A DNA stretch of 64,000 bases, taken from positions 1,287,134 to 1,351,133 of the forward strand of contig OZ244940.1 of NCBI GenBank assembly GCA_965222035.1, written 5' to 3'. The notes beneath the pieces were generated by a model. It did no database searches. It saw nothing but the letters and a program-made list of their open reading frames with translations, and had not been told where the DNA came from. Shown here piece after piece: positions 31,501-52,324 of this stretch; position 1 is the first letter of the stretch; the number at the start of each line of letters is the position of its first letter. The translations under genes and the position numbers were made by a program. This DNA is from Candidatus Amphirhobacter sp. GTDB lineage: Bacteria; Pseudomonadota; Gammaproteobacteria; Tethybacterales; Tethybacteraceae.

Positions 31501-34500
31501 CGGCGCGGTCGCTGAGCGCCGTGGCCATGCCAGGCTCAGGCGCGGCCGACCGCCACGTGCGGATCGCGATCGACGGCGGCACGAGCTTCACGCAGCAGAC
31601 GACCTTGCCCATCACGATGACCATGTCGACCAACAGCTCCTGCGCCAGCCAGTCGGGCGCGCCGGTCTCGCATGAGTTGGTCGGCAGAGTGGTGATTGTG
31701 CCGCCGGCGGCCTGGAGCGCGCTGGCCGGCGACGTGCTTACGCGCCCCCGCATCCTGTTCCAGCCATCGGCGATCAGGTCGTCCAACACGGCGACCGACA
31801 CCGGGCTGCGTCTCCATCGTGGTACTTCGGCCTGTCCGAACGTGGACGTTACGCTGCGCAACACCACGCACCTGGAGCTGCGGCAATACACCAGCAGTTC
31901 AGCGACGGGCTCGGCGGCGACGTTCTTCCGCAACATTCGCATGCAGAACAACCATGCCAATGACCGGCGGGTGGGCGTGCAGTTCCGGGCGGGCGCGACG
32001 CTGACAGCGGGTCCATACGCGCTGACATTGGTCGCGAGCGCGAACTCCTCCTGCGCCGATGCGGCGAAGCCGCGTCCCTTGACGCTGGCGTACACGCTTT
32101 CGGTGGAGAACGGCTGGCCGCTGCGCAACCAGGGCCAAGACAATCTCGGGACGCAGGCGCGGCTGCCGGCCTTGTCGCTGAGCGGCGTGTCCGGCGTGGT
32201 GCCCACTGGCCTGCGCCTGCATCGCAACATCTTCGTATGCGACAGCTTCGACGTGGCGCTGGCGAACGGCACCCCGAGTTACGTGAAGCTGCGCAAATAC
32301 CAGACCAACGGCACGGCGGACGGCGCGGCGGCGCGATCGCTGACGGGCGTGGCCATGCCGGGCTCGGGCGCGAATGACCGGCATGTGAGGATCGCGATCG
32401 ACGGCGGCACGAGCTTCACGCAACAAACAACCTTGCCGGTGACGCTGACGATGTCGACCAACAGTTCCTGCGCGAGCCAGTCGGGCGCGCCGGCTTCGCA
32501 TCTGCTGGTGGGCACGGTGGTGGTGGTGCCGCCGGCGTCCTGGAGCGAGCTGGCCGGCGACGTGGACACGTTGGCGCAGACCCTGCTGTTCCAGCCGTCG
32601 CGGGTCCGCGCCTCCAACGCGGCGATTGATACCGGATTGCGGCTGCATCGCGGCACCGCGGCCTGCCCGAACGTCGATGTGACCTTGCGCAACACCATGC
32701 ATCTGGAGCTGCGGCAATACACCAGCAGCGCGGCGACGGGATTGGCGGCGACCTTCTTCAACAACATTCGCATGGAGAACAACCATGCCAATGACCGGCG
32801 GGTGGGCGTGCAGTTCCGGGCGGGCGCGACGTTGACGGCGGGTCGGCTGACGCTGACATTGATCGCGCGGGCGAACGCATCCTGCGCCAATGCGGCGAAG
32901 CCGCGTGATCTGACGGTGGCGTATGAGCTGGAAATACGCGAGAACTGGCCGTGGCGGACGCGGGGCCAGGACAATCTCAGTACGGAAGCGAAGTTGGCTG
33001 TGGCGGCGTTGAACACGACTGGCGAGGTGCCGACCGGCCTGCGGGTGCATCGCGATTCGCTGGCGTGCCAGAGCACCGATGTGGCGCTGGCGTCGGGTTC
33101 GCCGGCATACATGAAGCTGCGCAAGTACCAGGCCAATGGCACGGCGGACGGCTCAGCGGCGCGCTCGCTGACAGGCGTGAACATGTCCGGCTCGGGCGCG
33201 GCCGACCGGCATGTGCGGGTGACCTTCGATGGCGGCACCAACCTGGCGGTGGACATAACCTTGATGGTGACGCTGACGGTCACGCGCAACGCCTCGGCCT
33301 GCTCGGGTTTCGGGCACCCGCCGGCGACGCAGCTGGTCGGCACGGTGGCGATGGTAGCGGCCGCAACCTGGAGCACGCTGCCTGGCGATGTTGCCAATCG
33401 CGACCGCATCCTGTTCCGGCCGTCGGCGGTCAGGTCGTCCAACTCAGCGACCGACACCGGGCTGCGCTTTCACCGCAGCACTACGGTTTGCCCGGACATC
33501 GACGTGACCTTGCGCAACACCACGCACCTGGAGCTGCGGCAATACACCAGCAGTTCGGCGACGGGATCGGCGGCGGCATTCTTCCGCAACATGCGCATGC
33601 AGAACAACCATGCCAATGACCGGCGGGTGGGCGTGCAGTTCCGGGCGGGCGCGACGCTGACGCCGGGCCCGCTGACGCTGACCTTGATCGCGGAGGCCAA
33701 CTCTTCTTGCACCAACCCGGCCAAGCAGCTGCCGCTGACGCTGGCGTACACGCTGTCGGTGCAGGAGGACTGGCCGCTGCGCAACCAAGGCCAGGACAAT
33801 CTCGGTACGCAGGCGCGGCTGCCGGCGCTGTCGCTAGAGGGCGTGACCGGTACGGTGCCGACCGGCTTGCAGCTGCACCGCAACATCTTCGTGTGCGATA
33901 ACTTCGATGTGGCGTTGGCGAACGGCACGCCGAGCTACGTGAAGCTGCGGAAATACCAGGCCAACGGCAATGCGGACGGCGCGGCGGCGCGCTCGCTGAC
34001 GGGCGTAGACATGTCCGGCTCGGGCTCGACCGACCGGCATGTGCGGATCGCGATCGACGGCGGCACGAGCTTCACGCAGCAGACGACCTTGCCGATCACG
34101 CTGACGATGTCGACCAACAGCTCTTGCGCCAGCCAGTCGGGCGCGCCGGCTTCGCATCAGCTGGTGGGCACGGTGGTGGTGGTGCCGCCGGCGGCTTGGA
34201 GCGCGTTGGCCGGCGACGTGGCCGCGCGCGACCGCATCCTGTTCAAGCCGACGCAGATCGAAGCTTCCAACTCAGCGACCGACACCGGGCTGCGGCTGCA
34301 TCGCGGCACTTCAGCCTGTCCGAACGTCGATGTGACCTTGCGCAACACCACGCATCTGGAGCTGCGGCAATACACCAGCAGCGCAGCGACGGGCTCGGCG
34401 GCGACCTTCTTCAACAACATTCGCATGGAGAACAACCATGCCAATGACCGGCGGGTGGGCGTGCAGTTCCGGGCGGGCGCGACAGTGACGGCAGGGCCGT

Positions 34501-37500
34501 TCACGCTGACGCTGATCGCGCGGGCGAATGCGTCCTGCACGGACTCGGCGAAGCCGCGCGACCTGACGCTGGCCTACACGCTGTCGGTACTGGAGAACTG
34601 GCCGCAGCGCAACCAGGGTCAGGACAACCTCGGTACGCAGGCGCGGATGCCGGCGCTGTCGCTAGAGGGCGTGACCGGCGCGATACCCACCGGCTTGCGG
34701 CTGCACCGCAACATCTTCGTGTGCTCGAGCTTCGACGTGGCGCTGGCGTCCGGCACGCCGAGCTACGTGAAGCTGCGCAAGTACCAGACCAACGGCACGG
34801 CGGATGGCGCAGCGGCGCGGTCGCTGACGGGCGTGGCCATGCCGGGCTCGGGCGCGGCCGACCGCCACGTGCGGATCGCGATCGACGGCGGCACGAGCTT
34901 CACGCAGCAGACCACCTTGCCGATTACGATGACGATGTCGACCAACAGCTCCTGCGCCAGCCAGTCGGGCGCGCCGGTCTCGCACCAGCTGATTGGCACA
35001 GTAGTAGTGGTACCGCCGGCGGCCTGGAGCGCGCTGGCCGGCGACGTGCTCACGCGCCCCCGCATCCTGTTCAAGCCGACGCAGGTCAGGTCGTCCAACT
35101 CGGCGGTTGACACCGGGCTGCGCCTCCACCGCGGCACCTCGGCCTGTCCGAACGTGGATGTAACGCTGCGCAACACCACGCATCTGGAACTGCGTCAATA
35201 CACCAGCAATTCGGCGACTGGTTCGGCGGCGACGTTCTTCCGCAACATCCGCATGCAGAACAACCATGCCAATGACCGGCGGGTGGGCGTGCAGTTCCGG
35301 GCGGGCGCGACGCTGACAGCGGGCGCGTTCGAGCTGACATTGATCGTGAGCGCGAACTCCTCCTGCGCCGATGCGGCGAAGCCGCGTCCGCTGACGCTGG
35401 CATACACGCTGTCGGTGCAGGAAGACTGGCCGCTGCGCAACCAGGGCCAGGACAATCTCGGGACGCAGGCGCGGATCGCAGCTCTGTCGCTGAGCGGCGG
35501 GTCCGGCGTGGTGCAGACTGGACTGCGGCTGCACCGCAACATCTTCGTGTGCGACAGTTTCGACGTGGCGTTGGCGAACGGCACTCCGAATTACGTGAAG
35601 CTGGGCAAATACCAGGCCAACGGCACGGCGGACGGCGCGGCGGCGCGGTCCTTGACGGGCGTGGCCATGCCGGGCTCGGGCGCGAATGACCGGCATGTGC
35701 GGATCGCGATCGACGCCGGCACGAGCTTCACGACCTTGACGACGCTGCGGGTGACGATGACCTTGGCGACCAACAGCTCTTGCGCCAGCCAGTCGGGCGC
35801 GCCAGCCTCGCATGAGCTGGTCGGCGCGGTGGAGATAGTCCCGCCGGCGGCCTGGAGCGCATTGGCCGGCGATGTGTCCTCTTTGGCGCGGACCCTGCTG
35901 TTCCAGCCGTCGACGATCAGGTCTTCCAACACAGCTAGCGACACCGGCCTGCGGCTGCATCGCGGGACCTCGGCCTGTCCGGACGTCGACGTGACCTTGC
36001 GCAACACCACGCATCTGGAGCTGCGGAAATACAACGGCAGCACGGCGGACGGATCGGCGGCGACATTCTTCACCGACATTCGCATGCAGCAAGGCGACTC
36101 CAATGACCGGCGGGTGGGCGTGCAGTTCCGGGCGGGGGCGACGCTGACGGCGGGCCGGCTGACGCTGACGCTGATCGCGCGCGCGAACACGTCATGCACC
36201 AATGCGGCGAAGCCGCGCGACCTGACGGTGGCGTATGAGCTGGAGATTCGCGAGAACTGGCCGTGGCGGACGCAAGGCCGCGACAATCTCGGCACGCAAG
36301 CGCAGGTGGCTTCGGTGGCGCTGGAGACGACCGGCCCGGTACCGACCGGCCTGCGGCTGCATCGCGATTCGCTGGCGTGCCAGAGCACCAACGTGGCGCT
36401 GGCGTCCAACGCGCCGAGTTACCTGAAGCTGCTCAAGTACCGGAGCAACGGCACCGTGGACGGCTCGGCGACCCGGTCGCAGACGGCCGTGAACATGTCC
36501 GGCTCGGGCGCCAACGACCGCTACATAGAGGTCGCGGTCGACGGCGGTACCTCCATAGCGGTGGACACCACCTTGGCGGTGACGATGACCATCAGGCCGA
36601 ACTCCTCGTGCACCGGCCGGGGCCATCCGCCGGCGACGCAGGTGGTGGGCACGCTGGTCGTGGTCGAGGCCGCGCCCTGGAGCATGTTGACCGGCGACGT
36701 CGCCAATCGCGACCGCATCCTGTTCCGGCCGTCGGCGGTCAGGTCGTCTGGCTCGGCGACCGATACCGGCCTGCGCTTCCACCGCAGTACTACGGTCTGT
36801 CCGGACATCGATGTGACCCTGCGCAACACCGCGCATCTGGAGCTGCGGCAATACACCGGCAGTTCGGCGACGGGTTCGGCGGCGACATTCTTCCGCAACA
36901 TGCGCATGCAGAACAATCATGCCAACGATCGTCTGGTAGGAGTGCAGTTCCGGGCAGGCGCGAATGTCCCGGCGGGTCCGCTGGCGCTAACGTTGATCGC
37001 GGAGGCGAATTCGTCTTGCACCAATCCGGCGAAGCAATTGCCGCTTACCCTGGCGTACACGCTGGAAGTGCGGGAAGACTGGCTGCTGCGCAACCAGGGC
37101 CAGGACAATCTCGGCACGCAGGCGCGGCTGCCGGCCTTGTCGCTGAGCGGCGCGACCGGCGTGGTGCCCACCGGCCTGCGGCTGCACCGCAACATCCTGG
37201 TGTGCTCGAGCTTCGATGTGGCGCTGGCGAACGGCACGCCGAATTACGTGAAATTGGGCAAATACCAGGCCAACGGCAACGCGGACGGCGCGGCGGCGCG
37301 GTCGCTGACGGGCGTGGCCATGCCGGGATCGGGCGCGGCCGACCGGCATGTGCGGGTGGCGATCGACGCCGGCACGAGCTTCACGACCTTGACGACGCTG
37401 CGGGTGACGATGACCTTAGCGACCAACAGCTCTTGCGCCAGCCAGTCGGGCGCGCCGGCTTCGCATGTGCTGGTCGGCACGGTGGCGGTGGTGCCGCCGG

Positions 37501-40500
37501 CGGCCTGGAGCGAGCTGGCGGGCGACGTGGACACGTTGGCGCAGACCCTGCTGTTCCAGCCGTCGACGATCAGGTCTTCCAACACAGCGAGCGACACCGG
37601 CCTGCGGCTGCATCGCGGCACCTCGGCCTGCCCGGACGTCGATGTGACCCTGCGCAACACCACGCATCTGGAGCTGCGGCAATACACGAGCAGCGCGGCG
37701 ACGGGATCGGCGGCGACGTTCTTCACCAACATCCGCATGCAGAACAACCATGCCAATGACCGGCGGGTGGGCGTGCAGTTCCGGGCGGGCGCGACGCTGA
37801 CGGCGGGCCGGCTGACGCTGACATTGATCGCGCGGGCGAACGCCTCCTGCACCGATGCGGCGAAGCCGCGCGATCTGACGGTGGCGTACGAATTGGAAGT
37901 GCGCGAGAACTGGCCGTGGCGGACGCAAAGGGAAGACAACCTGAGCACGCAAGCGCGGGTGGCTTCGATCGCGCTGGAGACCACCGGTCCGGTGCCGACC
38001 GGCTTGAGAGTGCAGCGCGATTCGCTGGCGTGCCAGAGCACCGACGTGGCGCTGGCATCGGGATCGCCGGCCTACATGAAGCTGCTCAAATACCGGAGCA
38101 ACGGCACGGCGGACGGTTCCGAGGCGCGGACGCAGAGCGGCGTGAACATGTCTGGATCGGGTGCGAGCAACCGCTATGTAGGGGTCACGTTCGACGGCGG
38201 TACTAATATAGCGATTGACACCACCTTGCAGATCACGCTTACGGTCACGCCGAACTCCTCCTGCACGGGCCAGGGCCATCCGCCGGCGACGCAGGTGGTG
38301 GGCACGGTGGTCGTGGTCGAGGCCGAGCCCTGGAGCATCTTGACCGGCGACGTGGCCAACCGCGACCGGATCCTGTTCAAGCCGTCCCAGATCCAAGCGG
38401 GCGCGGCGACTGACACCGGCCTGCGCTTCCACCGCAGCACTTCGGTCTGTCCGGACATAGATGTGACGCTGCGCAACACCGCGCATCTGGAGCTGCGGCA
38501 ATACACCGGCAGTTCGGCGACGGGTTCGGCGGCGGCGTTCTTCCGCAACGTGCGCATGCAGGCCAACCATGCCAACGACCGGCGGATTGGAGTGCAGTTC
38601 CGGGCGGGCGCGAACGTCCCGGCGGGCCCGCTGACGCTGACGTTGATCGCGGAGGCGAACTCTTCCTGCACCAATCCGGCCAAGCAGTTGCCGCTGACCC
38701 TGTCCTACACGCTGGAGGTACGGGAGAACTGGCCGCTGCGCAGCCAGAACCGGGACTCTCTCGGTACGCAGGCGCGGATCGCGGCGCTGTCGGTGGGCAG
38801 CGCGACCGAGCCGCTGCAGACCGGCTTGCGCTTGCACCGCAACATTTTCGTGTGCTCGGAGTTCGACGTGGCGCTGGCGGCGGGCGCGCCGGCGTACCTG
38901 AAGCTGGGCAAATACCAGGCCAACGGCACCGCGGACGGCGCGCCGGCGCGGTCGCTGACGGGCGTGGCCATGCCGGGATCGGGCGCGGCCGACCGCCACG
39001 TGCGAGTGGCGATCGACGGCGGCACGAGCTTTACGGCCCTGACGACCGTGCAGGTGACGATGACCCTGGCGACCAACAGCACCTGCGCGAGCCAGTCGGG
39101 CGCGCCGGCTTCCTATCAGTTGGTCGGCACGGTGGTGATAGTGCCGCCGCAGGCCTGGGGCGCGTTGGCGGGCGACGTGGCGGAGCGGGACGACACCTTG
39201 TTCCGGCCGACGCGGATTCGCGCCTCGAACGCGGCGATCGACACCGGCTTGCGCTTCCACCGCGGCACTTCGGTCTGCCCGGACGTCGATGTGACGCTGA
39301 ACACCACGACGCACCTGGAGCTGCGCCAATACACCAGCAGCGCGGCGGACGGCGCGGCGGCGACGTTCTTCCGCAACGTGCGCATGCAGGCCAGCCACGC
39401 CAACGACCGGCGGGTGGGGGTGCAGTTCCGGGCGCGCGCGACGGTGACGCCGGGTCCGCTGACGCTGACGCTAGTGGCGCGGGCGGCTTCGAGCTGCACG
39501 GCGCTGAACGCGCCGGCGCCGCTGACCATGGCGTACACATTGGCGGCGCTGGAGAAATGGCCGTGGCGGATCCAGGGCCAGGACAGCTTCACCGCGCCGG
39601 CGAGCGTCTATCTCTCGGCCTTGGCGACGACGGGCGTAGTCCCGACCGGCCTGCGGGTGCACCGCAACTCGCCGGCGTGCTCGAGCGTCGACGTGGCGCT
39701 GGCGGCCGGCTCGCCGGCCTATCTGTCGCTGCAGCGCCACAGCGCGGCGGGTGTCGTTGACGGCGCGCCGGCGCGGTCGCTGACGGCGGTGAACATGGCG
39801 AGCACGGGCGCGGCCGCCCGGCATGCGCAGGTGATGATCGCGGGCGGGACCACCTTGACGACCGGCGCGACAGTGATGGTATCGCTGTCGATCGCGCCCA
39901 ACGCCTCCTGCGCCGGTACCGAGGGCGTCCAGGATCTAGCGGACCTGGTCGGCAGCATCCTGGTCCTCGGCCGGGGCCAGGAGGAGATTACGCAGGAATC
40001 GATCCAGGCGGGCAACGCCATGGCGATGCGCATGATGGGGCTGGAGACCCTGGATGCGGTGCTGGCGCGCGGCGCGGCGGGCTCGGGCGCGGCGGCCACC
40101 GAGCAGCTGCTCGGCATGCTGGCGGCCAAGGAAGCCGGGCTGGAGAGCGGCGACATCGACCTGCGCGAGTTCCTTGCGGGCCAGAGCTTCGAGCTGGCGG
40201 CGCGGCCGGGCACCGCATCAGGCGCGGGCGCCGCGATATGGGGCCGCGCGGCCGCCTTCAAGACCGCCTCGACGGTGTCGGCTGCGACAGAGCTGGAAAG
40301 CGAATTGTTCAGCGCGCACTTTGGGGGCGACTACCGCTGGAGCAACGGCTTCGTGCTGGGGCTGGGCCTCGGCCGCCACGAGCTGGAGGGTACTTATAAG
40401 GAAGAGAGGGTTGCCGGCAGCTATCAGCTGGAGCTGGATCTGTACCAGCCGTATGCGGTGATGCCGCTGGGCCCGGCTGGCTGGCTGGCGGCCTACGGCA

Positions 40501-41258
40501 GCCAGGGCAGCGGCGAGATCATGCTGGCCGCGGCTGAGGACGGCGCGGAAGACACCATGCATGATGCCGACTATATAGGATGGGGCCTGGGCTGGCGCAA
40601 CGACCTGGACGACCTGCGCATGCGCGCGAGCGCCAGCGGCGGCGACCTCGAAGCAGCTTTGGATGACGAGATGGCGTTGGATTCCAAGGCCGGCGTGGTG
40701 CGGCTGGGCGTGGCCTATGCGCCGAGCTTCGAAGCGATCCCGGTGCGGCCGGAGCTGGAGGCCGCATGGAGCAAGGACTGGGGCGACGCCCAGGTGGGGC
40801 AGCACTGGCTGTTGGGCCTGGGCCTGGAATACGCGGGCGACGGCCCGCTGCAGGCGCGCGTCGCTTACCAGCATGCGGTGGCGGGCGACGGCGACCTGGC
40901 GGGCCTGGAACTTGACTTCCGCTTCCTGCCCGGCCGCGGCGGCCTGGGCCCCTCCTTCGCTTTGCGCCCGGGCTACGGCCTGGCTACCGGCGCGGCGGTG
41001 TTCGATCAGGTTGCGCGGCCGTTCGCCTTTGACGGCGGCGATGATGATGGCGACCGGCGCCTGCGCGCTGAGATGGCCTGGGGCCTGCCGGTCAGCGGCG
41101 GGGTGTTGACGCCTTACAGCAACTTGAGTATTGACAGCGATCGCGACCAGCTCGGCGCAGGCCTGCGCCTGGGTACCGCCGCGGCCGGATCCTGGCAACT
41201 GGGCTGGCAGCGCGAGGACAGCAGCAGCCTGCGGCTGCAGCTGCGCATCGGCGACTAA
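19533..41258 (+). CDS. Giant (7241 aa) secreted repeat protein: signal peptide, ~46 tandem ~140-aa two-cysteine domains, and a C-terminal ~430-aa autotransporter-like beta-barrel domain
   Basis: A single uninterrupted ORF. The N-terminus after the A9G9 tract is a signal peptide (ALQPRVATACFALIILLAAAVAPAQQ). Two alternating sub-repeat types share the core TGLR[LF]HR...C..DV.L....L.L..Y...G..DG.AA....V.M.....DR.V.V.F..G.....C. The C-terminus reads ...AIWGRAAAF...LFSAHFGGDYRWSNGFVLGLGLG... with alternating amphipathic strands and ends ELHLELRIGD. A TAAAAT box lies 10 nt upstream of the ATG. Confidence 0.85.
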   Translation: MAAILARTWLRIRKKKGGGRALQPRVATACFALIILLAAAVAPAQQANWVDQGRDGVSQTSYFHLPSTTDSSTGISFHRSHPSCRFNDVRLVNPPTWLEMIKYNGDAKDGDPGTRFTVRMERGHADDRSLRLSFKAGSTMPTGAHTLSLAAERHLTSPGCLGVAAATLSLEYTISIFDNISWMAQGLQAYYNGAIYRTDELGGLALDTGLRLHRRPNLCSKVDLSLVGGTEDYLELRAFEAQNVLYQRRTTPPSGGTTVTNVVLNTGRPLGAGAARLTNLVMDRDSPRDSYVRLFHKASVAVSEALEITVSVAFETSRSCGFPATVRKQTLDFMRHHVALAPTQYQATWKLESESLTPDGPFSPVRMRRFGLTPTGIFLNRSSSLCVVTNIQLLNHTDKFDIYASAGADALTENQGDHAIKNKTGHAIAWVIPDGKDLPAAGSVLRLSVLMRSNPFQCTNNNIAPRQTLAFALTVATPATWGVLAGDVTRQTGLLQPSVIRASATPTDTGVRFHRGTSACPLVDILMQPNPHLEMQLYNGNTATGAGVTTINGVRMQVGHADDRLVGLQFRERATVPNGTLTVTLEASASSGCEAADEPWPLTLTYTLTVQERWSWETQSRDNFGTQLELSRADLDGAGLVATGLRIHRDSHACQSTDVALAADAPSYLSLRRYTAAGATDGDAAATLAGVNMSGSGANDRHVQVMIDGGTQITPGATVLVTLTVSPNSSCTGNLHPEAQQLVGKVLPVNPDGWESIAGDVASRPRILFRPSQLRAAATPTDTGLRFHRGTDSCPLVDVVLRNTDYLQLQRYTPAGAVSGAAGSSFTNVRMAAGHASDRLVGVQFKAGVQVPATSLTLTLVAQPVSSCVNPRKPRPLTMSYTLAVAEHWPWRLKPQDNLGMVVSLEVENLAVSGPVATGLRLHRDILVCSNFDVALAADAPSYLKLRKYLGNGATDGAAARSLTGVDVSGAGALARHVRVAIDGGTSFTGLTTVRVTMTVATNASCASESGAPSARALVGTVAVFTAKEEWKTLAGDVARRDTVLFNRVYLTATDTGLRFHRGTDACPDVDIALSSVDQLQLQLYNSSGSAVGSASDSFTNVRMKSNDTNDRLVGVLFPANTIIPSGTGSSTLTLTATPNASCTNPGKPDDLVLTYTLYVGDTWPWRTQARDNFGTTVSMAQLALTGTNPVPTGLRIHRDSQDCQGTDVDLASASPSYLKLGKYRANGTADGAAARSLDDVYMFGSGSVDRHVEVMIDGTTSFTGLTTLKVTLTVAPGLCVASTLPDDETLVGNLVMVPPEAWGILSGDVAALARTKLFQPSALRAAASASDTGLRIHRGTAACPDVDVVLRTAQHLELQGYDASGIATGSASSALRNVRMQSISPNDRLVGLQFKAGTQVTPGMLTATVEMSANASCTHVAAPAGLTLTYTLAVLEHWPWRTQPQDNMNSPGQVSQGALTGTTNPVQVGLRLHRDTLACQNVDVALASNAPSYMKIGKYRANGASDGAVARSLTGVNMSGSGADDRHVRVSFDGGANVQVNTDIKITMTLTPNATSCTGVGHPPATQLVGTVIVRRGAAWLELNGNVATLNHTILFQPSTLRTSTTPTDTGLRVHRGTSTCPDIDITLRTTTHMEMQKYTAAGVKDGAASIAFATLRMENNHNSDRRVGLQFRSGVSIAAGMLTATVVVSATPTCAAVYPVPLTLAYTLAVLEYWPWRSQAQHNFGTQARFPHLSLGGTNPTPTGLRLHRDARACQSIDVALHSGAPSYLKLRKHQADGTADGAAARSLSGVNMSGTGAAGRHVRVAIDSGSGLAANTTVMVTLTVSPNSSCAGVGHPPAQQLVGTAVAVPPEDWSVLAGDISAAGRLLFPPSRTRSSNTAIDTGLRLHRGTNACPDVNVTLRNTMHLELRRYQGTRSTGDAATFFTNVRMQAGNANDRRIGVQFRAGAQVPAGPVELTLVAEASASCTDAAKPRPLTLSYTLSALENWPWRNQAQDNFATRAQIDGAAVLTSGAVPTGLRLHRNILVCSSFDVALATGTPSYVKLGSYRADGTADGAAVRSLAGVNMSGTGVLDRHVRVTFDGGTRFSASAILRVTLTVATNSSCDSQSGAPSAQELVAEVDVVPAQTWSALAGEVTSRDRILFKPTQIRAANSATDTGLRLHRGTAACPDVDITLRNTTHLELRKYNGSAADGAAATFFNNIRMKAGDANDRLVGVQFRAGATLTAGPFTLTLIARPTSACTNRARPGPLTLAYTLSVLENWPQRNQSQDNLGTRARIAALSIEDGTGAVLTGLRLHRNILVCSSFDVALASGTPSYVKLRKYQTNDTADGAAARSLTGVAMLGSGAADRHVRIAIDGGTSFTQQTTLPITMTLSTNSSCSSQSGAPASHQLVGTVEVVPPAAWSALNGDVANRDRILFRPSAIRAASSAIDTGLRLHRGNTACREVAVILNNTTHLELRQYTSSAATGSAATFFPFVHMENNHASDRRVGVQFRAGATVSAGPLELTLEVGASSLCSHIAKPRPLTLSYTLSVQEDWPLRNQGQDNLGTQAQLPALSLSGVSGAVPTGLRLHRNIFVCSSFDVALASGTPSYVKLRKYQTNGTADGAAARSLTGVAMPGSGAADRHVRIAIDGGTSFTQRTTLPVTLTMSTNSSCASQSGAPASHQLVGTVVVVPPASWSELAGDVDTLAQTLLFQPSAIRAANSATDTGLRLHRGTAACPNVDVTLNTTTHLELRQYTSSAATGSAATFFNNIRMQNNHANDRRVGVQFRAGATLTAGRLTLTLIARANASCTDPAKPRDLTVAYELEIRENWPWRTQGQDNLSTQARLAVLALNSTNPVLTGLRLHRDSIACQSTDVALASDSPSYLKLRKYQANGTADGSAARSLSGVNMSGSGAADRHVRIAIDGGTNIAAGTFLRVTLTVTRNSSCTGQGHPPATQLVGTVALVAAEAWGALAGDVANRDRILFKPSQVRSSNTATDTGLRFHRGTSVCPDVDVTLRNTTHLELRQYTSSSATGSANTFFRNIRMQNNHANDRRVGVQFRAGATLTPGPLTLTLIAEANASCTNPAKPVPLTQAYTLSVQEDWPLRNQGQDNLGTQARLPALSLSGVSGAVPTGLRLHRNIFVCSSFDVALASGTPSYVKLRKYQTNGTADGAAARSLTGVAMPGSGAADRHVRIAIDGGTSFTGLTTLPITLTMSTNSSCASQSGAPASHQLVGTVVVVPPASWSELTGDVDTLAQTLLFQPSAIRAANSATDTGLRLHRGTSACPNVDVTLRNTTHLELRQYTSSAATGSAATFFNNIRMQNNHANDRRVGVQFRAGATLTAGRLTLTLIARANASCADAAKPRDLTVAYELEIRENWPWRTQGQDNLSTQARLAVLALNSTDPVPTGLRVHRDSLACQSTDVALASGSPAYMKLRKYQTNGTADGSAARSLSGVNMSGSGAADRHVRVTFDGGTDLAAGTNLQITLTVTPNSSCTGQGHPPATQLVGTVALVAAEAWVALAGDVNNRDRILFRPSAIRAASSATDIGLRFHRGTSVCPDVDVTLRNTTHLELRQYTSSAATGSAATFFTNIRMQNNHANDRRVGVQFRAGATLTPGPLTLTLIAEANASCTNLAKPLPLTQAYTLSVQEQWPLRNQDQDNLGTQARLPALSLEGVSGAVPTGLRLHRNIFVCDNFDVALASGTPSYVKLRKYQTNGTADGAAARSLTGVDMSGSGANDRHVRIAIDGGTSFTQQTTLPITLTMSTNSSCASQSGAPASHQLVGTVVVVPPAAWSALNGDVANRDRILFKPTEIRASGSGIDTGLRLHRGTSACPNVDVTLHTTTHLELLQYSSTGSTGATSTFFNNIRMQNNHAQDRRVGVKFNPGETVPAGPLTLTLIARANSSCTDPAKPRDLTLAYTLSVLENWPLRNQGQDNLGTQARMPALSLEGVTGAIPTGLRLHRNIFVCSSFDVALASGTPSYVKLRKYQTNGTADGAAARSLSAVAMPGSGAADRHVRIAIDGGTSFTQQTTLPITMTMSTNSSCASQSGAPVSHELVGRVVIVPPAAWSALAGDVLTRPRILFQPSAIRSSNTATDTGLRLHRGTSACPNVDVTLRNTTHLELRQYTSSSATGSAATFFRNIRMQNNHANDRRVGVQFRAGATLTAGPYALTLVASANSSCADAAKPRPLTLAYTLSVENGWPLRNQGQDNLGTQARLPALSLSGVSGVVPTGLRLHRNIFVCDSFDVALANGTPSYVKLRKYQTNGTADGAAARSLTGVAMPGSGANDRHVRIAIDGGTSFTQQTTLPVTLTMSTNSSCASQSGAPASHLLVGTVVVVPPASWSELAGDVDTLAQTLLFQPSRVRASNAAIDTGLRLHRGTAACPNVDVTLRNTMHLELRQYTSSAATGLAATFFNNIRMENNHANDRRVGVQFRAGATLTAGRLTLTLIARANASCANAAKPRDLTVAYELEIRENWPWRTRGQDNLSTEAKLAVAALNTTGEVPTGLRVHRDSLACQSTDVALASGSPAYMKLRKYQANGTADGSAARSLTGVNMSGSGAADRHVRVTFDGGTNLAVDITLMVTLTVTRNASACSGFGHPPATQLVGTVAMVAAATWSTLPGDVANRDRILFRPSAVRSSNSATDTGLRFHRSTTVCPDIDVTLRNTTHLELRQYTSSSATGSAAAFFRNMRMQNNHANDRRVGVQFRAGATLTPGPLTLTLIAEANSSCTNPAKQLPLTLAYTLSVQEDWPLRNQGQDNLGTQARLPALSLEGVTGTVPTGLQLHRNIFVCDNFDVALANGTPSYVKLRKYQANGNADGAAARSLTGVDMSGSGSTDRHVRIAIDGGTSFTQQTTLPITLTMSTNSSCASQSGAPASHQLVGTVVVVPPAAWSALAGDVAARDRILFKPTQIEASNSATDTGLRLHRGTSACPNVDVTLRNTTHLELRQYTSSAATGSAATFFNNIRMENNHANDRRVGVQFRAGATVTAGPFTLTLIARANASCTDSAKPRDLTLAYTLSVLENWPQRNQGQDNLGTQARMPALSLEGVTGAIPTGLRLHRNIFVCSSFDVALASGTPSYVKLRKYQTNGTADGAAARSLTGVAMPGSGAADRHVRIAIDGGTSFTQQTTLPITMTMSTNSSCASQSGAPVSHQLIGTVVVVPPAAWSALAGDVLTRPRILFKPTQVRSSNSAVDTGLRLHRGTSACPNVDVTLRNTTHLELRQYTSNSATGSAATFFRNIRMQNNHANDRRVGVQFRAGATLTAGAFELTLIVSANSSCADAAKPRPLTLAYTLSVQEDWPLRNQGQDNLGTQARIAALSLSGGSGVVQTGLRLHRNIFVCDSFDVALANGTPNYVKLGKYQANGTADGAAARSLTGVAMPGSGANDRHVRIAIDAGTSFTTLTTLRVTMTLATNSSCASQSGAPASHELVGAVEIVPPAAWSALAGDVSSLARTLLFQPSTIRSSNTASDTGLRLHRGTSACPDVDVTLRNTTHLELRKYNGSTADGSAATFFTDIRMQQGDSNDRRVGVQFRAGATLTAGRLTLTLIARANTSCTNAAKPRDLTVAYELEIRENWPWRTQGRDNLGTQAQVASVALETTGPVPTGLRLHRDSLACQSTNVALASNAPSYLKLLKYRSNGTVDGSATRSQTAVNMSGSGANDRYIEVAVDGGTSIAVDTTLAVTMTIRPNSSCTGRGHPPATQVVGTLVVVEAAPWSMLTGDVANRDRILFRPSAVRSSGSATDTGLRFHRSTTVCPDIDVTLRNTAHLELRQYTGSSATGSAATFFRNMRMQNNHANDRLVGVQFRAGANVPAGPLALTLIAEANSSCTNPAKQLPLTLAYTLEVREDWLLRNQGQDNLGTQARLPALSLSGATGVVPTGLRLHRNILVCSSFDVALANGTPNYVKLGKYQANGNADGAAARSLTGVAMPGSGAADRHVRVAIDAGTSFTTLTTLRVTMTLATNSSCASQSGAPASHVLVGTVAVVPPAAWSELAGDVDTLAQTLLFQPSTIRSSNTASDTGLRLHRGTSACPDVDVTLRNTTHLELRQYTSSAATGSAATFFTNIRMQNNHANDRRVGVQFRAGATLTAGRLTLTLIARANASCTDAAKPRDLTVAYELEVRENWPWRTQREDNLSTQARVASIALETTGPVPTGLRVQRDSLACQSTDVALASGSPAYMKLLKYRSNGTADGSEARTQSGVNMSGSGASNRYVGVTFDGGTNIAIDTTLQITLTVTPNSSCTGQGHPPATQVVGTVVVVEAEPWSILTGDVANRDRILFKPSQIQAGAATDTGLRFHRSTSVCPDIDVTLRNTAHLELRQYTGSSATGSAAAFFRNVRMQANHANDRRIGVQFRAGANVPAGPLTLTLIAEANSSCTNPAKQLPLTLSYTLEVRENWPLRSQNRDSLGTQARIAALSVGSATEPLQTGLRLHRNIFVCSEFDVALAAGAPAYLKLGKYQANGTADGAPARSLTGVAMPGSGAADRHVRVAIDGGTSFTALTTVQVTMTLATNSTCASQSGAPASYQLVGTVVIVPPQAWGALAGDVAERDDTLFRPTRIRASNAAIDTGLRFHRGTSVCPDVDVTLNTTTHLELRQYTSSAADGAAATFFRNVRMQASHANDRRVGVQFRARATVTPGPLTLTLVARAASSCTALNAPAPLTMAYTLAALEKWPWRIQGQDSFTAPASVYLSALATTGVVPTGLRVHRNSPACSSVDVALAAGSPAYLSLQRHSAAGVVDGAPARSLTAVNMASTGAAARHAQVMIAGGTTLTTGATVMVSLSIAPNASCAGTEGVQDLADLVGSILVLGRGQEEITQESIQAGNAMAMRMMGLETLDAVLARGAAGSGAAATEQLLGMLAAKEAGLESGDIDLREFLAGQSFELAARPGTASGAGAAIWGRAAAFKTASTVSAATELESELFSAHFGGDYRWSNGFVLGLGLGRHELEGTYKEERVAGSYQLELDLYQPYAVMPLGPAGWLAAYGSQGSGEIMLAAAEDGAEDTMHDADYIGWGLGWRNDLDDLRMRASASGGDLEAALDDEMALDSKAGVVRLGVAYAPSFEAIPVRPELEAAWSKDWGDAQVGQHWLLGLGLEYAGDGPLQARVAYQHAVAGDGDLAGLELDFRFLPGRGGLGPSFALRPGYGLATGAAVFDQVARPFAFDGGDDDGDRRLRAEMAWGLPVSGGVLTPYSNLSIDSDRDQLGAGLRLGTAAAGSWQLGWQREDSSSLRLQLRIGD
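19571..19588 (+). repeat. Homopolymeric A9-G9 tract inside the 5' end of the giant gene, between the ATG and the signal peptide; a candidate slipped-strand phase-variation site
   Basis: aaaaaaaaa ggggggggg occupies codons 13-19 and is currently in frame. Equivalent G tracts occur at the same relative position in three paralogs. Confidence 0.7.
21450..39700 (+). repeat. About 22 tandem copies of a ~827-bp coding repeat (each encoding two ~140-aa domains) with high DNA identity
   Basis: The landmark string ccgagctacgtgaagctgcgcaagtaccagaccaacggcacggcgg recurs at ~26480, 27318, 28141, 28965, 29795, 30615, 31447, 32274, 33110, 33935, 34760, 35585, 36418, 37250, 38070 and 38895, giving a period of 820-838 bp. 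Confidence 0.85.
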
Positions 41259-41322: not shown

Positions 41323-44300
41323 ATGGAAGGGCGTTTGATTCGCCATGAAAGGGGGGGGGGTAGCGCCCTTCTAAGCGGCCTGGCGGTTGCGGCCGCCTTG
41401 TTGCTGACGGGCGTGATGATGGCGCCGCAGGCGCATGCTCAGGTGCAGGTTGTCCTAGGAAACCTCCACAAGACAACGGCCGACAAGGTTCTCACTTATC
41501 CCTATGAGGCTGGCCTGACCGGCATCGCTTTCCATGTGACTACATGCGGCGCTCCATCCAACATTGTTCTGCAAACCCGCACCGACGATTTTGACCTGGT
41601 AAGTTATTTCGTCGTACAAGGCCAAATCGGCGTTCGAGAAGGCCGCGGCGACAGCCGAAATGCCGTCGGCCGCGTCCACTACCTGGAGCTAGTTGACGGC
41701 CGGGACAGCCTGCCGGACGGTCCTCTGACCGTTACGGTCAAAGTTTGCAACCAGGCGCCATCGGCCTACACCGTCACGGTGGCGACGTGGTACGACCAGG
41801 GCATGCACAGCGACCGGCCCGCCAGCCGCCACGTCCGAGACATTGCGCCTGGCCAAGACACCGGCATCGCCATTCATCGCAGCGCCAACACGTGTCGCTT
41901 CACCGACGTGCGGCTGGCGGCCGGCGCGCCGGCTTGGCTGGAGCTGCGCCGGCATCGCGCCGACGGCACCGCCGACGGCGACGCCGGGCAGCGTTTGACG
42001 GCGCGGATGGAGAAGGACCATGCCGACGACCGGCATGTGCGCGTGCGCTTCAAGGACGACGCCAGCATGGAGCCGGGCAGCTATGTGTTCTCGATCGTGA
42101 TGGCGCGCACGGCGACCAGCGGCGCGGGATGCACCGCCGCGAGCGCGGCGGCGTACACGCTAGGCTACACCCTCAACATCAGTTTGGGAGCCAGCTGGGA
42201 ACGTCAGGAATCCCTGAACAGCGACAGCGTCACAAGCCACAGTGCGGATGCTTTGGGCGGGCCGTTCGCATTGGCGATGGGCCCGCGCATCCACCGCAGC
42301 TCCTCTTCATGCCGGTGGACGGACGCGAGCCTGGTGGCCGGCGGCTCGTTCTTGGCTATGCAGCGCTACGCCACAACGGGCAACGAAGCGGTTGGCGCGC
42401 CGGCGACCAGCGTGACCGACGTGCGCATGCAGCGCGGCTCTCCGGGCGATCGATATCTCGGCTTGATCTATCGCCGGAATACGCCAGTGCCAGCGGGGAC
42501 GGTGACCGCGGCGGTGGAACTCAAGCCGGCCGCGCGCTGCGCGAATTACGTCGGCATCCCCGGGCCGCTGACGCTGAGCTTCACCGCCACGATCGGCGCG
42601 GCAGCTGCCAACACGGAGCCCTGGATCATCAAGACCGGCTTCGCGAGCTCGGCGCCGACCATCTCGGTCTTCAGCCCGGCCAGCATCCACACGTCCCGCA
42701 CATATAGGGAAATACATACCGGCATCTTCATCGGCCGGCGCACGGCGACTTGCAACGATTATTCCTACAACCTGCTCAATCACCGCGATCTGTTCGAAGT
42801 CGGATACTATCCACTTCACACAGGCTACCAAGACAATATTCAACCCGACGATTCGTTTAGCCGGAATCGCTCCTTCAATTTCGGTGACAACGATGGAGGC
42901 TTCGGCCTGCAGTTCGAGGCCGGCGCGCAGCCGGAGCCGAACACCACCATCACCCTGCATGTGGCGCTGGGCAGGTTTAGATGCGGCAGCCCCGCGCTGA
43001 CCACGCTGTCGTACACCATGACCATTGGCCCGGCGGCGCCCTGGGGAACCTTGGCGAACAATGTCGCGACGGTGACCACGCTGTTCAGGCCCACGCAGCT
43101 GGCGGCCGCCGCGTCGGCGACCGACACCGGCATCCGCTTCAACCGCGGCGTGGCGACGAGCATCTGCACGAACGTGGACGTGGAGCTGGCGAGCGGCAGC
43201 CGCACCCATGTGGAACTGCAGAAGTACAACGGGACGGCGGCCGACGGCGCGGCGGCGGTTTCGTTCGGGGGCCTGACCATGCATGCGGGCGCGACGGGCA
43301 ATCCGGTGGGCCTGCAGTTCAAGGCGGGCGCGTCGGTGCCGGCCGGCGTCCTGACGGTGGCGGTGATCGCCAAGCCCGCCGGCAGCTGCGATCATGCGGA
43401 AGAGCCAATCCCGCTGACGGTGAATTATGAGCTGGTGGTGGGCGAGCGGCAGCCGTGGCAGGTGCACGATCTCGACAGCATGGGACGGGTGGTACTGCTC
43501 GACGGCTTTGCGGCGCAAAGGAGCGCGGCCGACTCCGGCCTGCGGGTGCACCGCAAGCTGAGCGGCTGCAGCTCCATGGATGTGTCGCTGCCAGACGACG
43601 CGCCTGATTGGGCGATGCTGCAGCAGCATGGCCCGAGCGGCCCGGTCGGCGCGCGCGCGCGGACCCAGGCGGCGGTGCCGATGGCGGGCTCGGGCGCGGC
43701 CGGCGACCGGCATGTGCGGCTGATGATCGTGCCGTCGGGGACGCCCCTGCCGGATGCGCGGCTGACGATGGGCGTCGCGGTGGCGGCCAACGCATCATGC
43801 GGGGCCGGCAGCGACATTCCGGCGCCGCAGATGCTGTCGGGCGTGGTGGTGTTTGACACCCAAGGCGTGGGCACGGAGCAGGCGATCCAGGCGGGCGCTT
43901 CGGCGGCGGTACGGGCAATCGGCTTGGAAACCCTGGACGCGGTCATGGCGCGGCCGGACGCCGTGGCCGGATCATGGTCCAGCGAGCTGCTCGGCTTGAT
44001 GCACGCGCACGAGGCCGAGCTCGAGCGCGGCGAGTTCGAGCTGCGGGACCTGGCGGGCGAGGAGTTCGCGCTGGCTTTGTCGAACAGTCCGACCGGCTTG
44101 CCGGCGGGCCTGGCCCTGTGGGGACGTTTCGCTGCCTACGATGTCGGCAATGAGATCGAAGGCGGCGCGCGCTCGGACAATGAATTGTTCAGCGCGAGCT
44201 TCGGCCTCGACTACCGCCTGCGCGCGGGCATGATGCTCGGCCTGGGCTATGGCCACCACGAGATCGACGGCAGCTACGCTGCCAGCTCGGCCAGCGGCAT

Positions 44301-45150
44301 TTACCAGCTGGATCTGGATTTGTACCAGCCGTACGTCGTCGGCTCGATCGGTCCGGGGCTGCTGGCCGCCTTCGCGAGCCAGGGCTCGGGCGACCTGGTG
44401 ATGCACAGCCACGACGGCATCGCGCTGGCGCCGAGCGAGGCCGACTACCAAGGCTGGGGCCTGGGCTGGAGCAGCGCGGTCGAGCGCTGGGACCTGCTGC
44501 TGCGCGCGGGCGCCAGCACGGGCGAGCTCGACGTCGAGGATGAGACTTTGACGCTGGATACCGAAGCGGGCGCGGCGCGCCTGGCGGTGGCCTACGCGCC
44601 GCAGCGGGATTTGATCAACCATCTGCCCTTTCGTGCCGAGCTCGAGGTGGCCTGGGAGGACAACTGGGGCGATGTCGCGACCGACGCGAGCTGGCTGCTG
44701 GGCGCGGCCTTCGAGTACTCCGGCGCCGGGCCCATGCATGCGCGGGCGGCCTACCGCCGGGCGATTGCGGGCGACGGCGACCTGTCCGGCCTGGAGTTCG
44801 ACTTCCAGGTCGATCCGGCCCGCGGCGGCCTGGGTCCGTCCTTCGCCTTGCGCCCGGGCTATGGCTTGGAAACGGGCACTGACTTGTTCGCGCAAGCGGC
44901 GCGGCCGACTTCCTTTACCGCCGGCGCCGACCGCGGCCGGCGCCTGCGCGCCGAGATGGCTTGGGGCCTGCCGGTCAGCGGCGGGGTGCTGACGCCCTAT
45001 GGCGACTGGAGCATGAACGACGCGAGCACGCAGCGCCAACAACTGGGCCTGCGCCTGGGCACCGGCGCCTATGGCGATTGGAACTTGGGCTGGCGCAGCG
45101 CCGACAGCGCCGCTGACGAGCTGCATCTGGAACTGCGCATCGGCGACTAG
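41323..45150 (+). CDS. Paralogous autotransporter-like repeat protein (1275 aa): signal peptide, divergent N-terminal region, ~4 two-cysteine domains and the conserved C-terminal beta-barrel-like domain
   Basis: The start reads M E G R L I R H E R G G G S, a G10 tract, then the signal peptide ALLSGLAVAAALLLTGVMMAPQAHAQ. The C-terminal ~430 aa are homologous to the gene A C-terminus and end ELHLELRIGD. A TAAAAT box lies ~9 nt upstream. Confidence 0.85.
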   Translation: MEGRLIRHERGGGSALLSGLAVAAALLLTGVMMAPQAHAQVQVVLGNLHKTTADKVLTYPYEAGLTGIAFHVTTCGAPSNIVLQTRTDDFDLVSYFVVQGQIGVREGRGDSRNAVGRVHYLELVDGRDSLPDGPLTVTVKVCNQAPSAYTVTVATWYDQGMHSDRPASRHVRDIAPGQDTGIAIHRSANTCRFTDVRLAAGAPAWLELRRHRADGTADGDAGQRLTARMEKDHADDRHVRVRFKDDASMEPGSYVFSIVMARTATSGAGCTAASAAAYTLGYTLNISLGASWERQESLNSDSVTSHSADALGGPFALAMGPRIHRSSSSCRWTDASLVAGGSFLAMQRYATTGNEAVGAPATSVTDVRMQRGSPGDRYLGLIYRRNTPVPAGTVTAAVELKPAARCANYVGIPGPLTLSFTATIGAAAANTEPWIIKTGFASSAPTISVFSPASIHTSRTYREIHTGIFIGRRTATCNDYSYNLLNHRDLFEVGYYPLHTGYQDNIQPDDSFSRNRSFNFGDNDGGFGLQFEAGAQPEPNTTITLHVALGRFRCGSPALTTLSYTMTIGPAAPWGTLANNVATVTTLFRPTQLAAAASATDTGIRFNRGVATSICTNVDVELASGSRTHVELQKYNGTAADGAAAVSFGGLTMHAGATGNPVGLQFKAGASVPAGVLTVAVIAKPAGSCDHAEEPIPLTVNYELVVGERQPWQVHDLDSMGRVVLLDGFAAQRSAADSGLRVHRKLSGCSSMDVSLPDDAPDWAMLQQHGPSGPVGARARTQAAVPMAGSGAAGDRHVRLMIVPSGTPLPDARLTMGVAVAANASCGAGSDIPAPQMLSGVVVFDTQGVGTEQAIQAGASAAVRAIGLETLDAVMARPDAVAGSWSSELLGLMHAHEAELERGEFELRDLAGEEFALALSNSPTGLPAGLALWGRFAAYDVGNEIEGGARSDNELFSASFGLDYRLRAGMMLGLGYGHHEIDGSYAASSASGIYQLDLDLYQPYVVGSIGPGLLAAFASQGSGDLVMHSHDGIALAPSEADYQGWGLGWSSAVERWDLLLRAGASTGELDVEDETLTLDTEAGAARLAVAYAPQRDLINHLPFRAELEVAWEDNWGDVATDASWLLGAAFEYSGAGPMHARAAYRRAIAGDGDLSGLEFDFQVDPARGGLGPSFALRPGYGLETGTDLFAQAARPTSFTAGADRGRRLRAEMAWGLPVSGGVLTPYGDWSMNDASTQRQQLGLRLGTGAYGDWNLGWRSADSAADELHLELRIGD
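41351..41360 (+). repeat. Poly-G (G10) tract in the 5' coding region of paralog B, currently in frame
   Basis: The context gaaaGGGGGGGGGGtagcg matches the motif in the other paralogs. Confidence 0.7.
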
Positions 45151-45305: not shown

Positions 45306-46463
45306 TCAATTTTTCTTGCGCTTGCGCCGGGCTTTGAAGTATTGGAAGAAGGAGGGGATGGCAGCCCGTACCTTAGCGTCGTTCGTAAACCATACCAAGC
45401 TGTTGTCTAGCAGCAGATTGAAAATCTTGCGCGCCTCTTCGGAACTCATGCCATCATTGGTGGCCGCCAGCTCCGCGGCAACCTCTTCGGGCGGCAATGG
45501 CGGATCCTCATCTTCCACGATAGCCACTACCTGGCTGGCGTAGTCCAATGCGTCTGCGTCTGCGATCTTCTCGTAAACGCTGTGATAGTAAATTTGGCGC
45601 TCCTTCTGCATGGCGGCCTCGGCGCCCTGCGCCAGGGCCAGGTCGACTTCATTGCGCTTGGCTTTCCGCATGGCCTTCCACACTTCCCTGCCCGCCAGCT
45701 GGATGAAGTAAGGATAGTTGTCAGTCCAGCCCGCCATCAAATCAAGCGCCTCGTCCGCCACCTTCACGCCATTGTCCAGCAGCGGCTTGCTCAGTGCTTC
45801 GCGCACCGCCTCGTCGCTGAGCTGATGGATGTATATCGATTGGCAGCGATTGATGAAGGAGGCGTCGGCCTGGTGCAATCTCCCGTCGAGCGCTGGAGTA
45901 CCGGCTATCATCACCGCCAAAGGCCGCTTTAGCATGAGCATCTGCTGGCACGCCTGCAGCAAGTCCCCGAGGGACGTAACATCGTAGTGCATCGCCTCGT
46001 CCAGCAGCAGCAGCACGGGTTTCCTGCGCAGCAGCTGCTGCAACACTCGCGCAATCGTCCGCTTCTCGTAATGCTTCCGCCGCGCGGTAAAGATGGACAG
46101 GCTAAACTGGTAGAAAGCGTTCAGCCACAGCAATGCGTGCTCGCGGATGTCCATGCCATCAAGCAAGCCGTTGATGATGTCGCTGTCCGGGTTCAAGTTG
46201 CGCAGCCTGGCGATGTTAACCACGTGGATGCCTTGTTGCCGCGCTTCGACGCCAGCCACACCTAGCAGCGTCGTTTTGCCCGCCCCGCGCGGGCCGACAA
46301 TCTTGATGGGCGTGAGCGGAGAACGCTCCAGGCCGCCGCCGACCAGAGGCTTGGCGATCAAACGCAGGGTCTCGCTGATTATGTCCCGCTGCTCTTCCCG
46401 TCCCGCCAAATGCGGGGGTTCGAGCGCTGTGCCCGGAACAAACGGGTTTTCGACAGACCCCAT
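45306..46463 (-). CDS. AAA+ ATPase (ATPase_2/AAA_16-like; Walker A GPRGAGKT, Walker B LLLLDEAMHY), paralog 1
   Basis: 385 aa. The N-terminus reads ...NPFVPGTALEPPHLAGREEQ...IKIVGPRGAGKTTLL. It is about 85% identical to the ORF at 56256..57416. A TAAAAT box lies 7 nt upstream of the ATG on the minus strand. Confidence 0.8.
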   Translation of the reverse strand: MGSVENPFVPGTALEPPHLAGREEQRDIISETLRLIAKPLVGGGLERSPLTPIKIVGPRGAGKTTLLGVAGVEARQQGIHVVNIARLRNLNPDSDIINGLLDGMDIREHALLWLNAFYQFSLSIFTARRKHYEKRTIARVLQQLLRRKPVLLLLDEAMHYDVTSLGDLLQACQQMLMLKRPLAVMIAGTPALDGRLHQADASFINRCQSIYIHQLSDEAVREALSKPLLDNGVKVADEALDLMAGWTDNYPYFIQLAGREVWKAMRKAKRNEVDLALAQGAEAAMQKERQIYYHSVYEKIADADALDYASQVVAIVEDEDPPLPPEEVAAELAATNDGMSSEEARKIFNLLLDNSLVWFTNDAKVRAAIPSFFQYFKARRKRKKN

Positions 46464-48512: not shown

Positions 48513-48521
48513 GGGGGGGGG
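48513..48521 (+). repeat. Poly-G (G9) tract; the length puts the upstream ATG and signal peptide out of frame in paralog D
   Basis: The context gatgaaagGGGGGGGGGtagcggccctctag matches E (G10) but has one G fewer. Confidence 0.8.
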
Positions 48522-52269: not shown

Positions 52270-52324
52270 GGTTGGCCGGCGGGCTCCGGCTCCGGCGGTT
52301 TCCTGTATTGTAAAATGGCTTGGA

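Follow-up and report, generated by a model that had tools for sequence, protein, structure and literature searches.

Which kind of domain terminates five neighboring proteins encoded in a 64,000-nucleotide stretch of contig OZ244940.1 (positions 1,287,134 to 1,351,133 of the forward strand; hereafter the window), and how might such a domain be inserted into an outer membrane when its final residue is Asp rather than an aromatic amino acid? The question arose from a first-pass annotation of window positions 39900-41258, which form the in-frame 3′ end of an open reading frame (ORF) that spans 19533..41258 on the plus strand and encodes 7241 amino acids. That annotation had proposed the organization of a type Va autotransporter translocator. 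On the basis of sequence comparisons and a structure model, we conclude that the domain is probably a diverged, Va-like type V translocator and anchor, whose barrel would be folded by the β-barrel assembly machinery (BAM) and whose passenger would be displayed at the cell surface.

A C-terminal domain shared by five paralogs

The giant protein ends in SWQLGWQREDSSSLRLQLRIGD, followed by a stop codon. Every motif that had been quoted for the domain is found in its translation, namely LETLDAVLAR, QLLGMLAAKEAGLE, WGR, LFSAHFGGDYR, LGLGLG, YQLELDLYQPY and RLGVAYAP, and further on LEAAWSKDW, WLLGLGLEYAG, LELDFRF, LRAEMAWGLPV, SWQLGWQRE and the terminal LRLQLRIGD. The proposal that five paralogs carry the same terminal domain also holds, as four further plus-strand ORFs possess it and end in ELHLELRIGD. 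The five proteins measure 7241, 1275, 595, 1232 and ~1262 amino acids, and RIGD is invariant in all five copies. Aligned with one another, the domains span ~450 columns with ~140 invariant positions, and their pairwise identity across the last 416 amino acids is 43-79%. This similarity is far beyond chance and marks them as old paralogs that are strongly constrained. The annotated length of ~430 amino acids becomes ~416 for the conserved unit: a helical linker of ~70, followed by a barrel of ~343.

In the giant protein, the Ala-rich helical linker as modeled (model residues 1-56, with L56 conserved) is encoded at 40008..40175 (+), and a conserved F-x-L-[PA]-L segment that follows it (F61 conserved) at 40185-40199 (+). 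The predicted β-barrel occupies 40227..41249 (+), from strand b1, which starts immediately ahead of the invariant W in IWGR, to strand b18 (SSLRLQLRI); this last strand, with its Gly-Asp cap and the stop codon, lies at 41223..41258 (+). By sequence alignment, the linker and barrel of paralog 2 (gene 41323..45150, 1275 amino acids) map to 43882..45150 (+), and those of paralog 3 (gene 46645..48432, 595 amino acids) to 47161..48432 (+). The corresponding regions are 51001..52269 (+) in paralog 4 (ORF 48571..52269, 1232 amino acids) and 54851..56113 (+) in paralog 5 (ORF 52121..56113), whose true start is probably the ATG at 52325 (gene 52325..56113). All five proteins begin with what reads as a Sec-type N-terminal signal peptide with an AxA-type cleavage site. 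Type Va proteins show the same order of signal peptide, passenger, α-helical linker and C-terminal barrel.

The passenger of the giant protein is composed of ~49 tandem modules of ~138 amino acids, of two alternating types; the repeat period is ~830 nucleotides. In each module, a T-G-L-R-x-H-R...C motif is invariant and a second Cys is present, and the protein contains 99 Cys in total. About six modules are present in each of the three mid-sized paralogs and one in the 595-amino-acid paralog. A profile of the module returned no match among Pfam or PDB sequences, and by sequence it appears to be an uncharacterized repeat domain. In relatives, the same position is taken by Big_9, cadherin-like and Calx-beta adhesin domains.

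A HMMER search with the five-paralog profile against 1.84 billion cluster representatives (clusters at 50% identity) recovered 657 proteins at E ≤ 1e-3 and 303 at E ≤ 1e-10. Among the 150 relatives listed, nearly all carry the match at the extreme C-terminus, and these are large proteins of up to 7796 amino acids. Distant relatives exceed the gathering threshold of PF03797 (Autotransporter beta-domain), which is matched by 29 of 42 aligned family members, and six of the 42 match TIGR01414. Furthermore, hhalign comparison of the family alignment with the β-domains of Escherichia coli K-12 Ag43, YcgV, YfaL and YpjA gave an E value of 1.6e-4 (probability 50%, 187 columns), and a repeat with 151 sequences against E. 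coli autotransporter β-domains gave 4.8e-4. Thus, three independent lines of evidence support homology with the type Va translocators. These results, together with the helical linker before the barrel, sustain the type Va proposal at the level of the family. The window copies themselves fall below the curated models: they match neither PF03797, against which a check had been suggested, nor TIGR01414 even at E ≤ 1, and the relationship is reached via relatives. A scan for the domain of a genome collection, which seems not to include the window's own species, yielded one Longimicrobiales locus as the sole match, and two scans of JGI metagenomes yielded no relatives.

The predicted barrel and its candidate assembly signals

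An AlphaFold2 model of the domain built from a 42-sequence alignment reached a predicted local distance difference test score (pLDDT) of 90.3 and a predicted template modeling score (pTM) of 0.83; with the five paralogs alone as input, the pLDDT was 34. Helices at model residues 2-23, 29-40, 42-47 and 52-56 correspond to the Ala-rich linker and are followed by a short strand at the F-x-L-[PA]-L segment. The DSSP strings of the model then give 18 strands from residue 74 to 413/414, with pLDDT values mostly above 90. Most strands are joined by turns of two to eight residues, and the one longer connection is a variable loop of 26 residues after b13. All 18 strands show an alternation of hydrophobic and polar residues across 151 sequences. 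Thus, the expectation of a β-barrel agrees with the model, although the 12 to 14 amphipathic stretches counted earlier become 18 strands. Likewise, the domain had been judged too large for a 12-strand autotransporter barrel, and in the model this is so: 343 residues separate the start of b1 from the end of the protein, compared with an estimated ~250 in classical autotransporter barrels.

Several comparisons bear on a barrel of more than 12 strands. In relatives, the PF03797 matches cover HMM positions 2 to ~225 out of 255, with more than 110 residues remaining beyond them. In the hhalign alignment, b1-b9 pair one-to-one with strands of Ag43, after which three strands remain in Ag43 and nine remain here. 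Because the last strand is at the very C-terminus, b13-b18 must sit between b12 and the closure of the barrel. The best structural matches are type Va barrels (NalP 1uyo, EspP 2qom, Hbp 3aeh, AIDA-I 4mee, BrkA 3qq2 and EstA 3kvn), and Foldseek template modeling (TM) scores are only ~0.5 when normalized to 12-strand targets. Normalized to the query, scores reach 0.45 at most (0.38-0.45 for 22-strand receptors and 0.34 for autotransporter barrels), and therefore no solved barrel matches the full-length domain. An hhalign test for internal duplication, comparing b13-b18 with b1-b12, was not significant (probability 2%, P 0.02). A barrel of ~18 strands is predicted by the model and best explains the anomalous size; its sheet would be closed and the linker would lie within the barrel.

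As the first-pass annotation stated, Asp is the final residue in every copy, and the bulky hydrophobic or aromatic end of the type Va C-terminal β-signal is replaced by RIGD in five of five. For comparison, the β-motif of 68% of autotransporters lies in the last strand and closes with a bulky hydrophobic residue (Celik et al. 2012, PMC3419190). Among 161 collected family proteins, the final residue is F in 83, W in 17, L in 10, D in 26, E in 11 and N in 7. A neighbor-joining tree of 151 domains splits cleanly into two clades by terminus. The clade that includes the window copies ends in ...EYRLGD/E, ...EYWLE, ...RYRIGN, ...QYNFID, ...EYK[VI]IN or ...EFQE, with ...RLGY as the lone exception, whereas ...LLKGEVRF/W or ...IRL terminates the members of its sister clade. 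Among the non-aromatic sequences are members rich in Lys, Asn and Ile (...KIIN, ...NFID) and members rich in Ala, Gly and Arg. The Longimicrobiales homolog, a protein of 3013 amino acids with the same C-terminal domain (metagenome-assembled genome OZ251497.1, locus 1358-10399, +), ends in ...GLRLQVEYNR. Given these differences in composition and the Longimicrobiales homolog, which ends in ...LQVEYNR, the non-aromatic terminus follows the protein subfamily across different hosts. Judged from these sequences, the Asp terminus is a trait of the subfamily, with partial precedent in the literature, and is not evidence of an exotic host.

The Asp had been taken to indicate a divergent insertion signal or a non-proteobacterial diderm lineage. 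The non-aromatic end is real, yet it is a family trait and not a lineage-wide BAM signature, since the sister clade keeps ...RF. The non-proteobacterial lineage finds no support: the GyrB protein encoded in the window has the proteobacterial GyrB_insert domain, its best named relatives are from Beta- and Gammaproteobacteria (~53% identity, with metagenomic sequences at 59-99%), and in a close relative, whose ortholog of the 595-amino-acid paralog is 96% identical, the cluster adjoins glyQS (two-subunit glycyl-tRNA synthetase), DUF2909 and SURF1 genes. From these sequences, the host looks like a deep, uncultured proteobacterial lineage.

If the terminal strand lacks the usual signal, another element may take its place. 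Throughout the family, conservation is highest in strand b14, the fifth from the C-terminus (RRLRAEMAWGLPV in the giant protein, 41055..41093, +), with the consensus R-L-x-A-E-[LM]-x-[YW]-G-L. In both clades, G359 never varies and 99-100% of sequences have Y or W at position 358. In E. coli outer-membrane proteins, BamD recognizes an internal signal in strand -5 of the form hydrophobic-x5-[aromatic/hydrophobic]-x-[aromatic/hydrophobic] (Germany et al. 2024, PMC10945584), and 473 of 1511 autotransporters, such as EstA, have the β-motif only internally (PMC3419190). The b14 sequence fits this published internal β-signal and is accordingly a candidate for one. Because b14 is near-invariant and fits the published internal signals, we propose that BAM is engaged via strand -5, and recognition might depend mainly on b14, along with the hydrophobic side of the last strand.

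A plausible sequence of events can be outlined. Sec would export each protein to the periplasm, where strand -5 and the hydrophobic side of the last strand would serve to engage BAM, and the C-terminal ~343 residues would fold into a large outer-membrane β-barrel. The passenger, with one to ~49 Cys-pair modules, would then be displayed at the cell surface, having passed through or beside the barrel. The Ala-rich helices and the F-x-L-P-L segment would be left in the lumen, either as a linker through the pore or as its plug. The Gly-Asp end might be a short periplasmic tail or an in-register replacement for the terminal Phe. We speculate that a wider pore would ease the export of Cys-pair modules.

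The two possibilities for the Gly-Asp end both have a basis in the alignments. The motif L-x-L-x-[Y/L]-x-[I/L]-G-D aligns opposite [IV]-x-L-x-G-x-[VLI]-R-F of the sister clade, so that Asp shares the phase of the canonical Phe. A strand with I/L as its last residue and Gly-Asp as a two-residue tail would have the same hydrophobic phase. Termini such as ...QYNF-ID and ...LEF-QE favor the tail, and ...RLGY favors the in-register arrangement.

Competing explanations and known systems

Several observations weigh against a diverged Va-like translocator. The window copies find no match in Pfam, NCBIfam or PDB sequences even at E ≤ 1-10, whether searched as single domains, as a five-sequence profile or as a 42-sequence profile, and the hhalign probabilities against E. 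coli autotransporters are only 32-50%. Widely spaced disulfides generally block classical autotransport, Cys-pair modules stall in classical Va barrels when oxidized, and a passenger with 99 Cys is atypical for this route. The alignments fit an Asp in register with Phe and an Asp two residues past the strand end alike. The count of 18 strands comes from the DSSP strings of a predicted model, length arithmetic and residue alternation. The AIDA-I structure (4mee) is said to be an ordinary 12-strand barrel. From extra motifs, "long-type" barrels had been predicted for both AIDA-I and Ag43 (Celik et al., PMC3419190). The case of AIDA-I counsels caution against over-reading sequence length.

One rival reading is an ordinary 12-strand Va barrel whose extra ~110 residues form long loops or accessory β-structure outside the membrane, with AlphaFold or DSSP over-counting the transmembrane strands. 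We regard this as unlikely, because the model resolves 18 separate, mostly high-confidence strands joined by short turns, each strand alternates in hydrophobicity throughout the 151 sequences, and the C-terminal position of the last strand forces b13-b18 between b12 and closure. TM scores of only ~0.5 to 12-strand targets, and higher query-normalized scores for 22-strand receptors than for autotransporter barrels, point the same way. Less likely still is a lineage-specific BAM code, in which an unusual or non-proteobacterial diderm host would lack the terminal aromatic residue in all its outer-membrane proteins. The depth of the lineage, with GyrB only ~53% identical to that of any named organism, is in keeping with such a code, as are the ...VEYNR end of the Longimicrobiales relative and the ...SYLAR end of a possible outer-membrane protein beside it; species-specific C-terminal motifs have also been documented (Robert et al. 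2006, as cited in PMC3419190). The GyrB insert, the two-subunit glycyl-tRNA synthetase, DUF2909 and SURF1 all point to Pseudomonadota, however, and the non-aromatic end is common to a whole clade of differing composition beside a sister clade ending in ...RF. No other outer-membrane protein gene was found in the 64-kb window. Least probable of all, in our judgment, is that the barrel is a mere membrane anchor or a pore of other function, with the repeats remaining periplasmic or leaving by different export machinery. This idea draws on the Cys pair in each module, 99 Cys in the giant protein, given the block that widely spaced disulfides impose on classical autotransport, and on the porin-like size of an 18-strand barrel. 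Against it stand the type Va layout, in which a signal peptide precedes the repeats, the helical linker and the C-terminal barrel, the Big_9, cadherin-like and Calx-beta adhesin domains at the passenger position of relatives, and a gene cluster without any type I secretion system (T1SS), type II secretion system or TpsB gene.

The diverged translocator and anchor thus remains the explanation that we prefer, and a more ambitious version of it can be entertained tentatively, although we consider it doubtful as a whole. The family might constitute an undescribed type V class: an 18-strand Va-like barrel, consisting of the classical core and six C-terminal strands, that is widespread (at least 657 clusters at 50% identity) and carries Ig-like, cadherin-like or Calx-beta passengers. 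Its wider pore could pass disulfide-bonded modules of ~138 amino acids. One deep subfamily would have swapped the terminal aromatic residue for Gly-Asp/Glu/Asn, relying on the signal in the fifth-from-last strand for recognition by BAM or the translocation and assembly module (TAM).

How the domain compares with known systems can be stated more concretely. Like type Va proteins (PF03797/TIGR01414), each polypeptide runs from a Sec signal and a passenger through a helical linker to an outer-membrane barrel at its C-terminus; b1-b9 are collinear with the type Va strands, the barrel starts at an invariant W-G, and homology is traced via intermediate sequences and profile-profile alignment. Unlike type Va barrels of 12 strands, the model has 18, with six more on the C-terminal side, and in place of a single helix the predicted linker is a helical bundle with the conserved F-x-L-P-L segment. 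Other differences are the Gly-Asp rather than aromatic terminus, passengers of Cys-pair modules rather than a β-helix, and window copies that score below the threshold of every curated model. The family also resembles autotransporters with an internal motif (EstA; the BamD "-5 strand" signal), in that the terminal strand lacks a canonical signal and the fifth-from-last strand has hydrophobic-x5-[W/Y]-G-L. Those proteins have 12 strands and generally, as in EstA, an aromatic end, whereas an acidic or amide residue after Gly is present here, and recognition by BamD would be by analogy.

Other candidates were rejected. The Omp85-type proteins of types Vb and Vd (TpsB/FhaC, CdiB, PlpD; 16 strands) have a POTRA domain N-terminal to a 16-strand barrel, an arrangement that is absent here. 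Type Ve inverse autotransporters, in which the barrel precedes the passenger, do not fit, because each of the five paralogs, like nearly every one of the 150 relatives listed, has its barrel at the far C-terminal end. Giant RTX adhesins of the LapA type, exported by a T1SS, do not fit because RTX and T1SS domains were not found in the proteins or their neighborhood and Sec signal peptides are present. A type IX secretion system or sortase-type sorting signal was likewise rejected. Type V barrels are described as having 12 strands (Va, Vc, Ve), 16 (Vb, Vd) or 8 (Vf) (PMC9289746), and searches of an open-access subset of the literature yielded no description of 16- or 18-strand autotransporter barrels or of such a new type V subclass.

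Homopolymer tracts and gene neighborhood

The window contains only four runs of seven or more G or C residues, and all of them lie 20-55 nucleotides after the start codons of four paralogs, in the region encoding the signal-peptide n-region. The giant gene has an in-frame A9G9 tract (19571..19588, +), and in-frame G10 tracts are present in the signal-peptide regions of paralog 2 (41351..41360, +) and paralog 5 (52350..52359, +). In paralog 4, a G9 tract (48513..48521, +) lies 24 nucleotides downstream of the ATG at 48489. Compared with the homologous context in paralog 5, this tract is short by one G, which puts that ATG out of frame, and the frame runs into a stop; the 5′ end of the gene is therefore frameshifted, as in an OFF state. 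Paralog 3, the one covered in this respect by two contigs of a related strain, has no tract. Contingency loci are marked by a homopolymer tract within the 5′ coding sequence that determines the frame through its length; this hallmark is present, and the sequence suggests slipped-strand phase variation of the cluster genes. The OFF state of paralog 4 could instead be a homopolymer sequencing error. Neisseria Opa is a phase-variable outer-membrane adhesin with a repeat tract in its 5′ coding region. Another such adhesin is Helicobacter pylori OipA, with CT repeats (PMC10564699), and the four paralogs are similar in having tracts in the signal-peptide coding region, here known from the tract lengths of one assembly.

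The cluster lies ~12 kb from dnaA-dnaN-gyrB, in an origin-type region (1158-7468) that has no recF between dnaN and gyrB. Two ATPase genes of the AAA_22/AAA_16/ATPase_2 type (STAND-like), 79% identical to each other, follow paralog 2 (45306-46463, -) and paralog 5 (56256-57545, -). On a contig of a related strain (ENA ERZ23497095 / SRR18245240; positions 1-7100), the same ATPase gene lies between the orthologs of paralogs 2 and 3, and the ATPase may be a conserved partner or regulator of the cluster. In that strain, the paralog 3 ortholog is followed directly by a small ORF, a TMEM260-like gene and a topoisomerase gene; neither paralog 4 nor paralog 5 nor the second ATPase gene is present, so paralog copy number varies between close relatives. 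In the window, the cluster is followed (58042-60642) by a small ORF whose product has a lipoprotein-like signal (LLQGC) and by a gene for a TMEM260-like (protein O-mannosyltransferase-like) membrane protein of 693 amino acids, and both genes keep their position beside it in both related-strain contigs. A role for these two products in modifying the surface proteins is conceivable.

Two stretches of lower GC content (7550-10210 and 17522-19150; ~0.556 versus ~0.68) hold an FRG/TPR-domain gene and two paralogous ORFs (8885-9487, -, and 9590-10210, -), as well as a Schlafen AlbA_2/HATPase_c_4 gene directly upstream of the giant gene. These stretches may be acquired islands or defense genes. At the Longimicrobiales locus, a convergent ORF (10455-12983, -) with a weak match to TraF_2, presumably an outer-membrane barrel family, terminates in ...ALSYLAR. 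One hint from this is that Tyr followed by two or three residues may be the usual end of outer-membrane proteins in that genome.

If the structural prediction is correct, a large, cross-phylum family of autotransporter relatives with ~18 strands would add an architecture to the type V list, and with the enlarged barrel, the amount of folded, disulfide-bonded cargo that can cross a self-encoded barrel would again be in question. The Gly-Asp/Glu/Asn clade beside its ...RF sister clade offers a natural experiment on whether BAM needs a terminal or an internal β-signal. Because current models miss this subfamily, giant adhesin genes of this kind are left unnamed by Pfam and NCBIfam. For the organism itself, an uncultured proteobacterial lineage, the five paralogs and their homopolymer switches suggest that the cell surface is variable.

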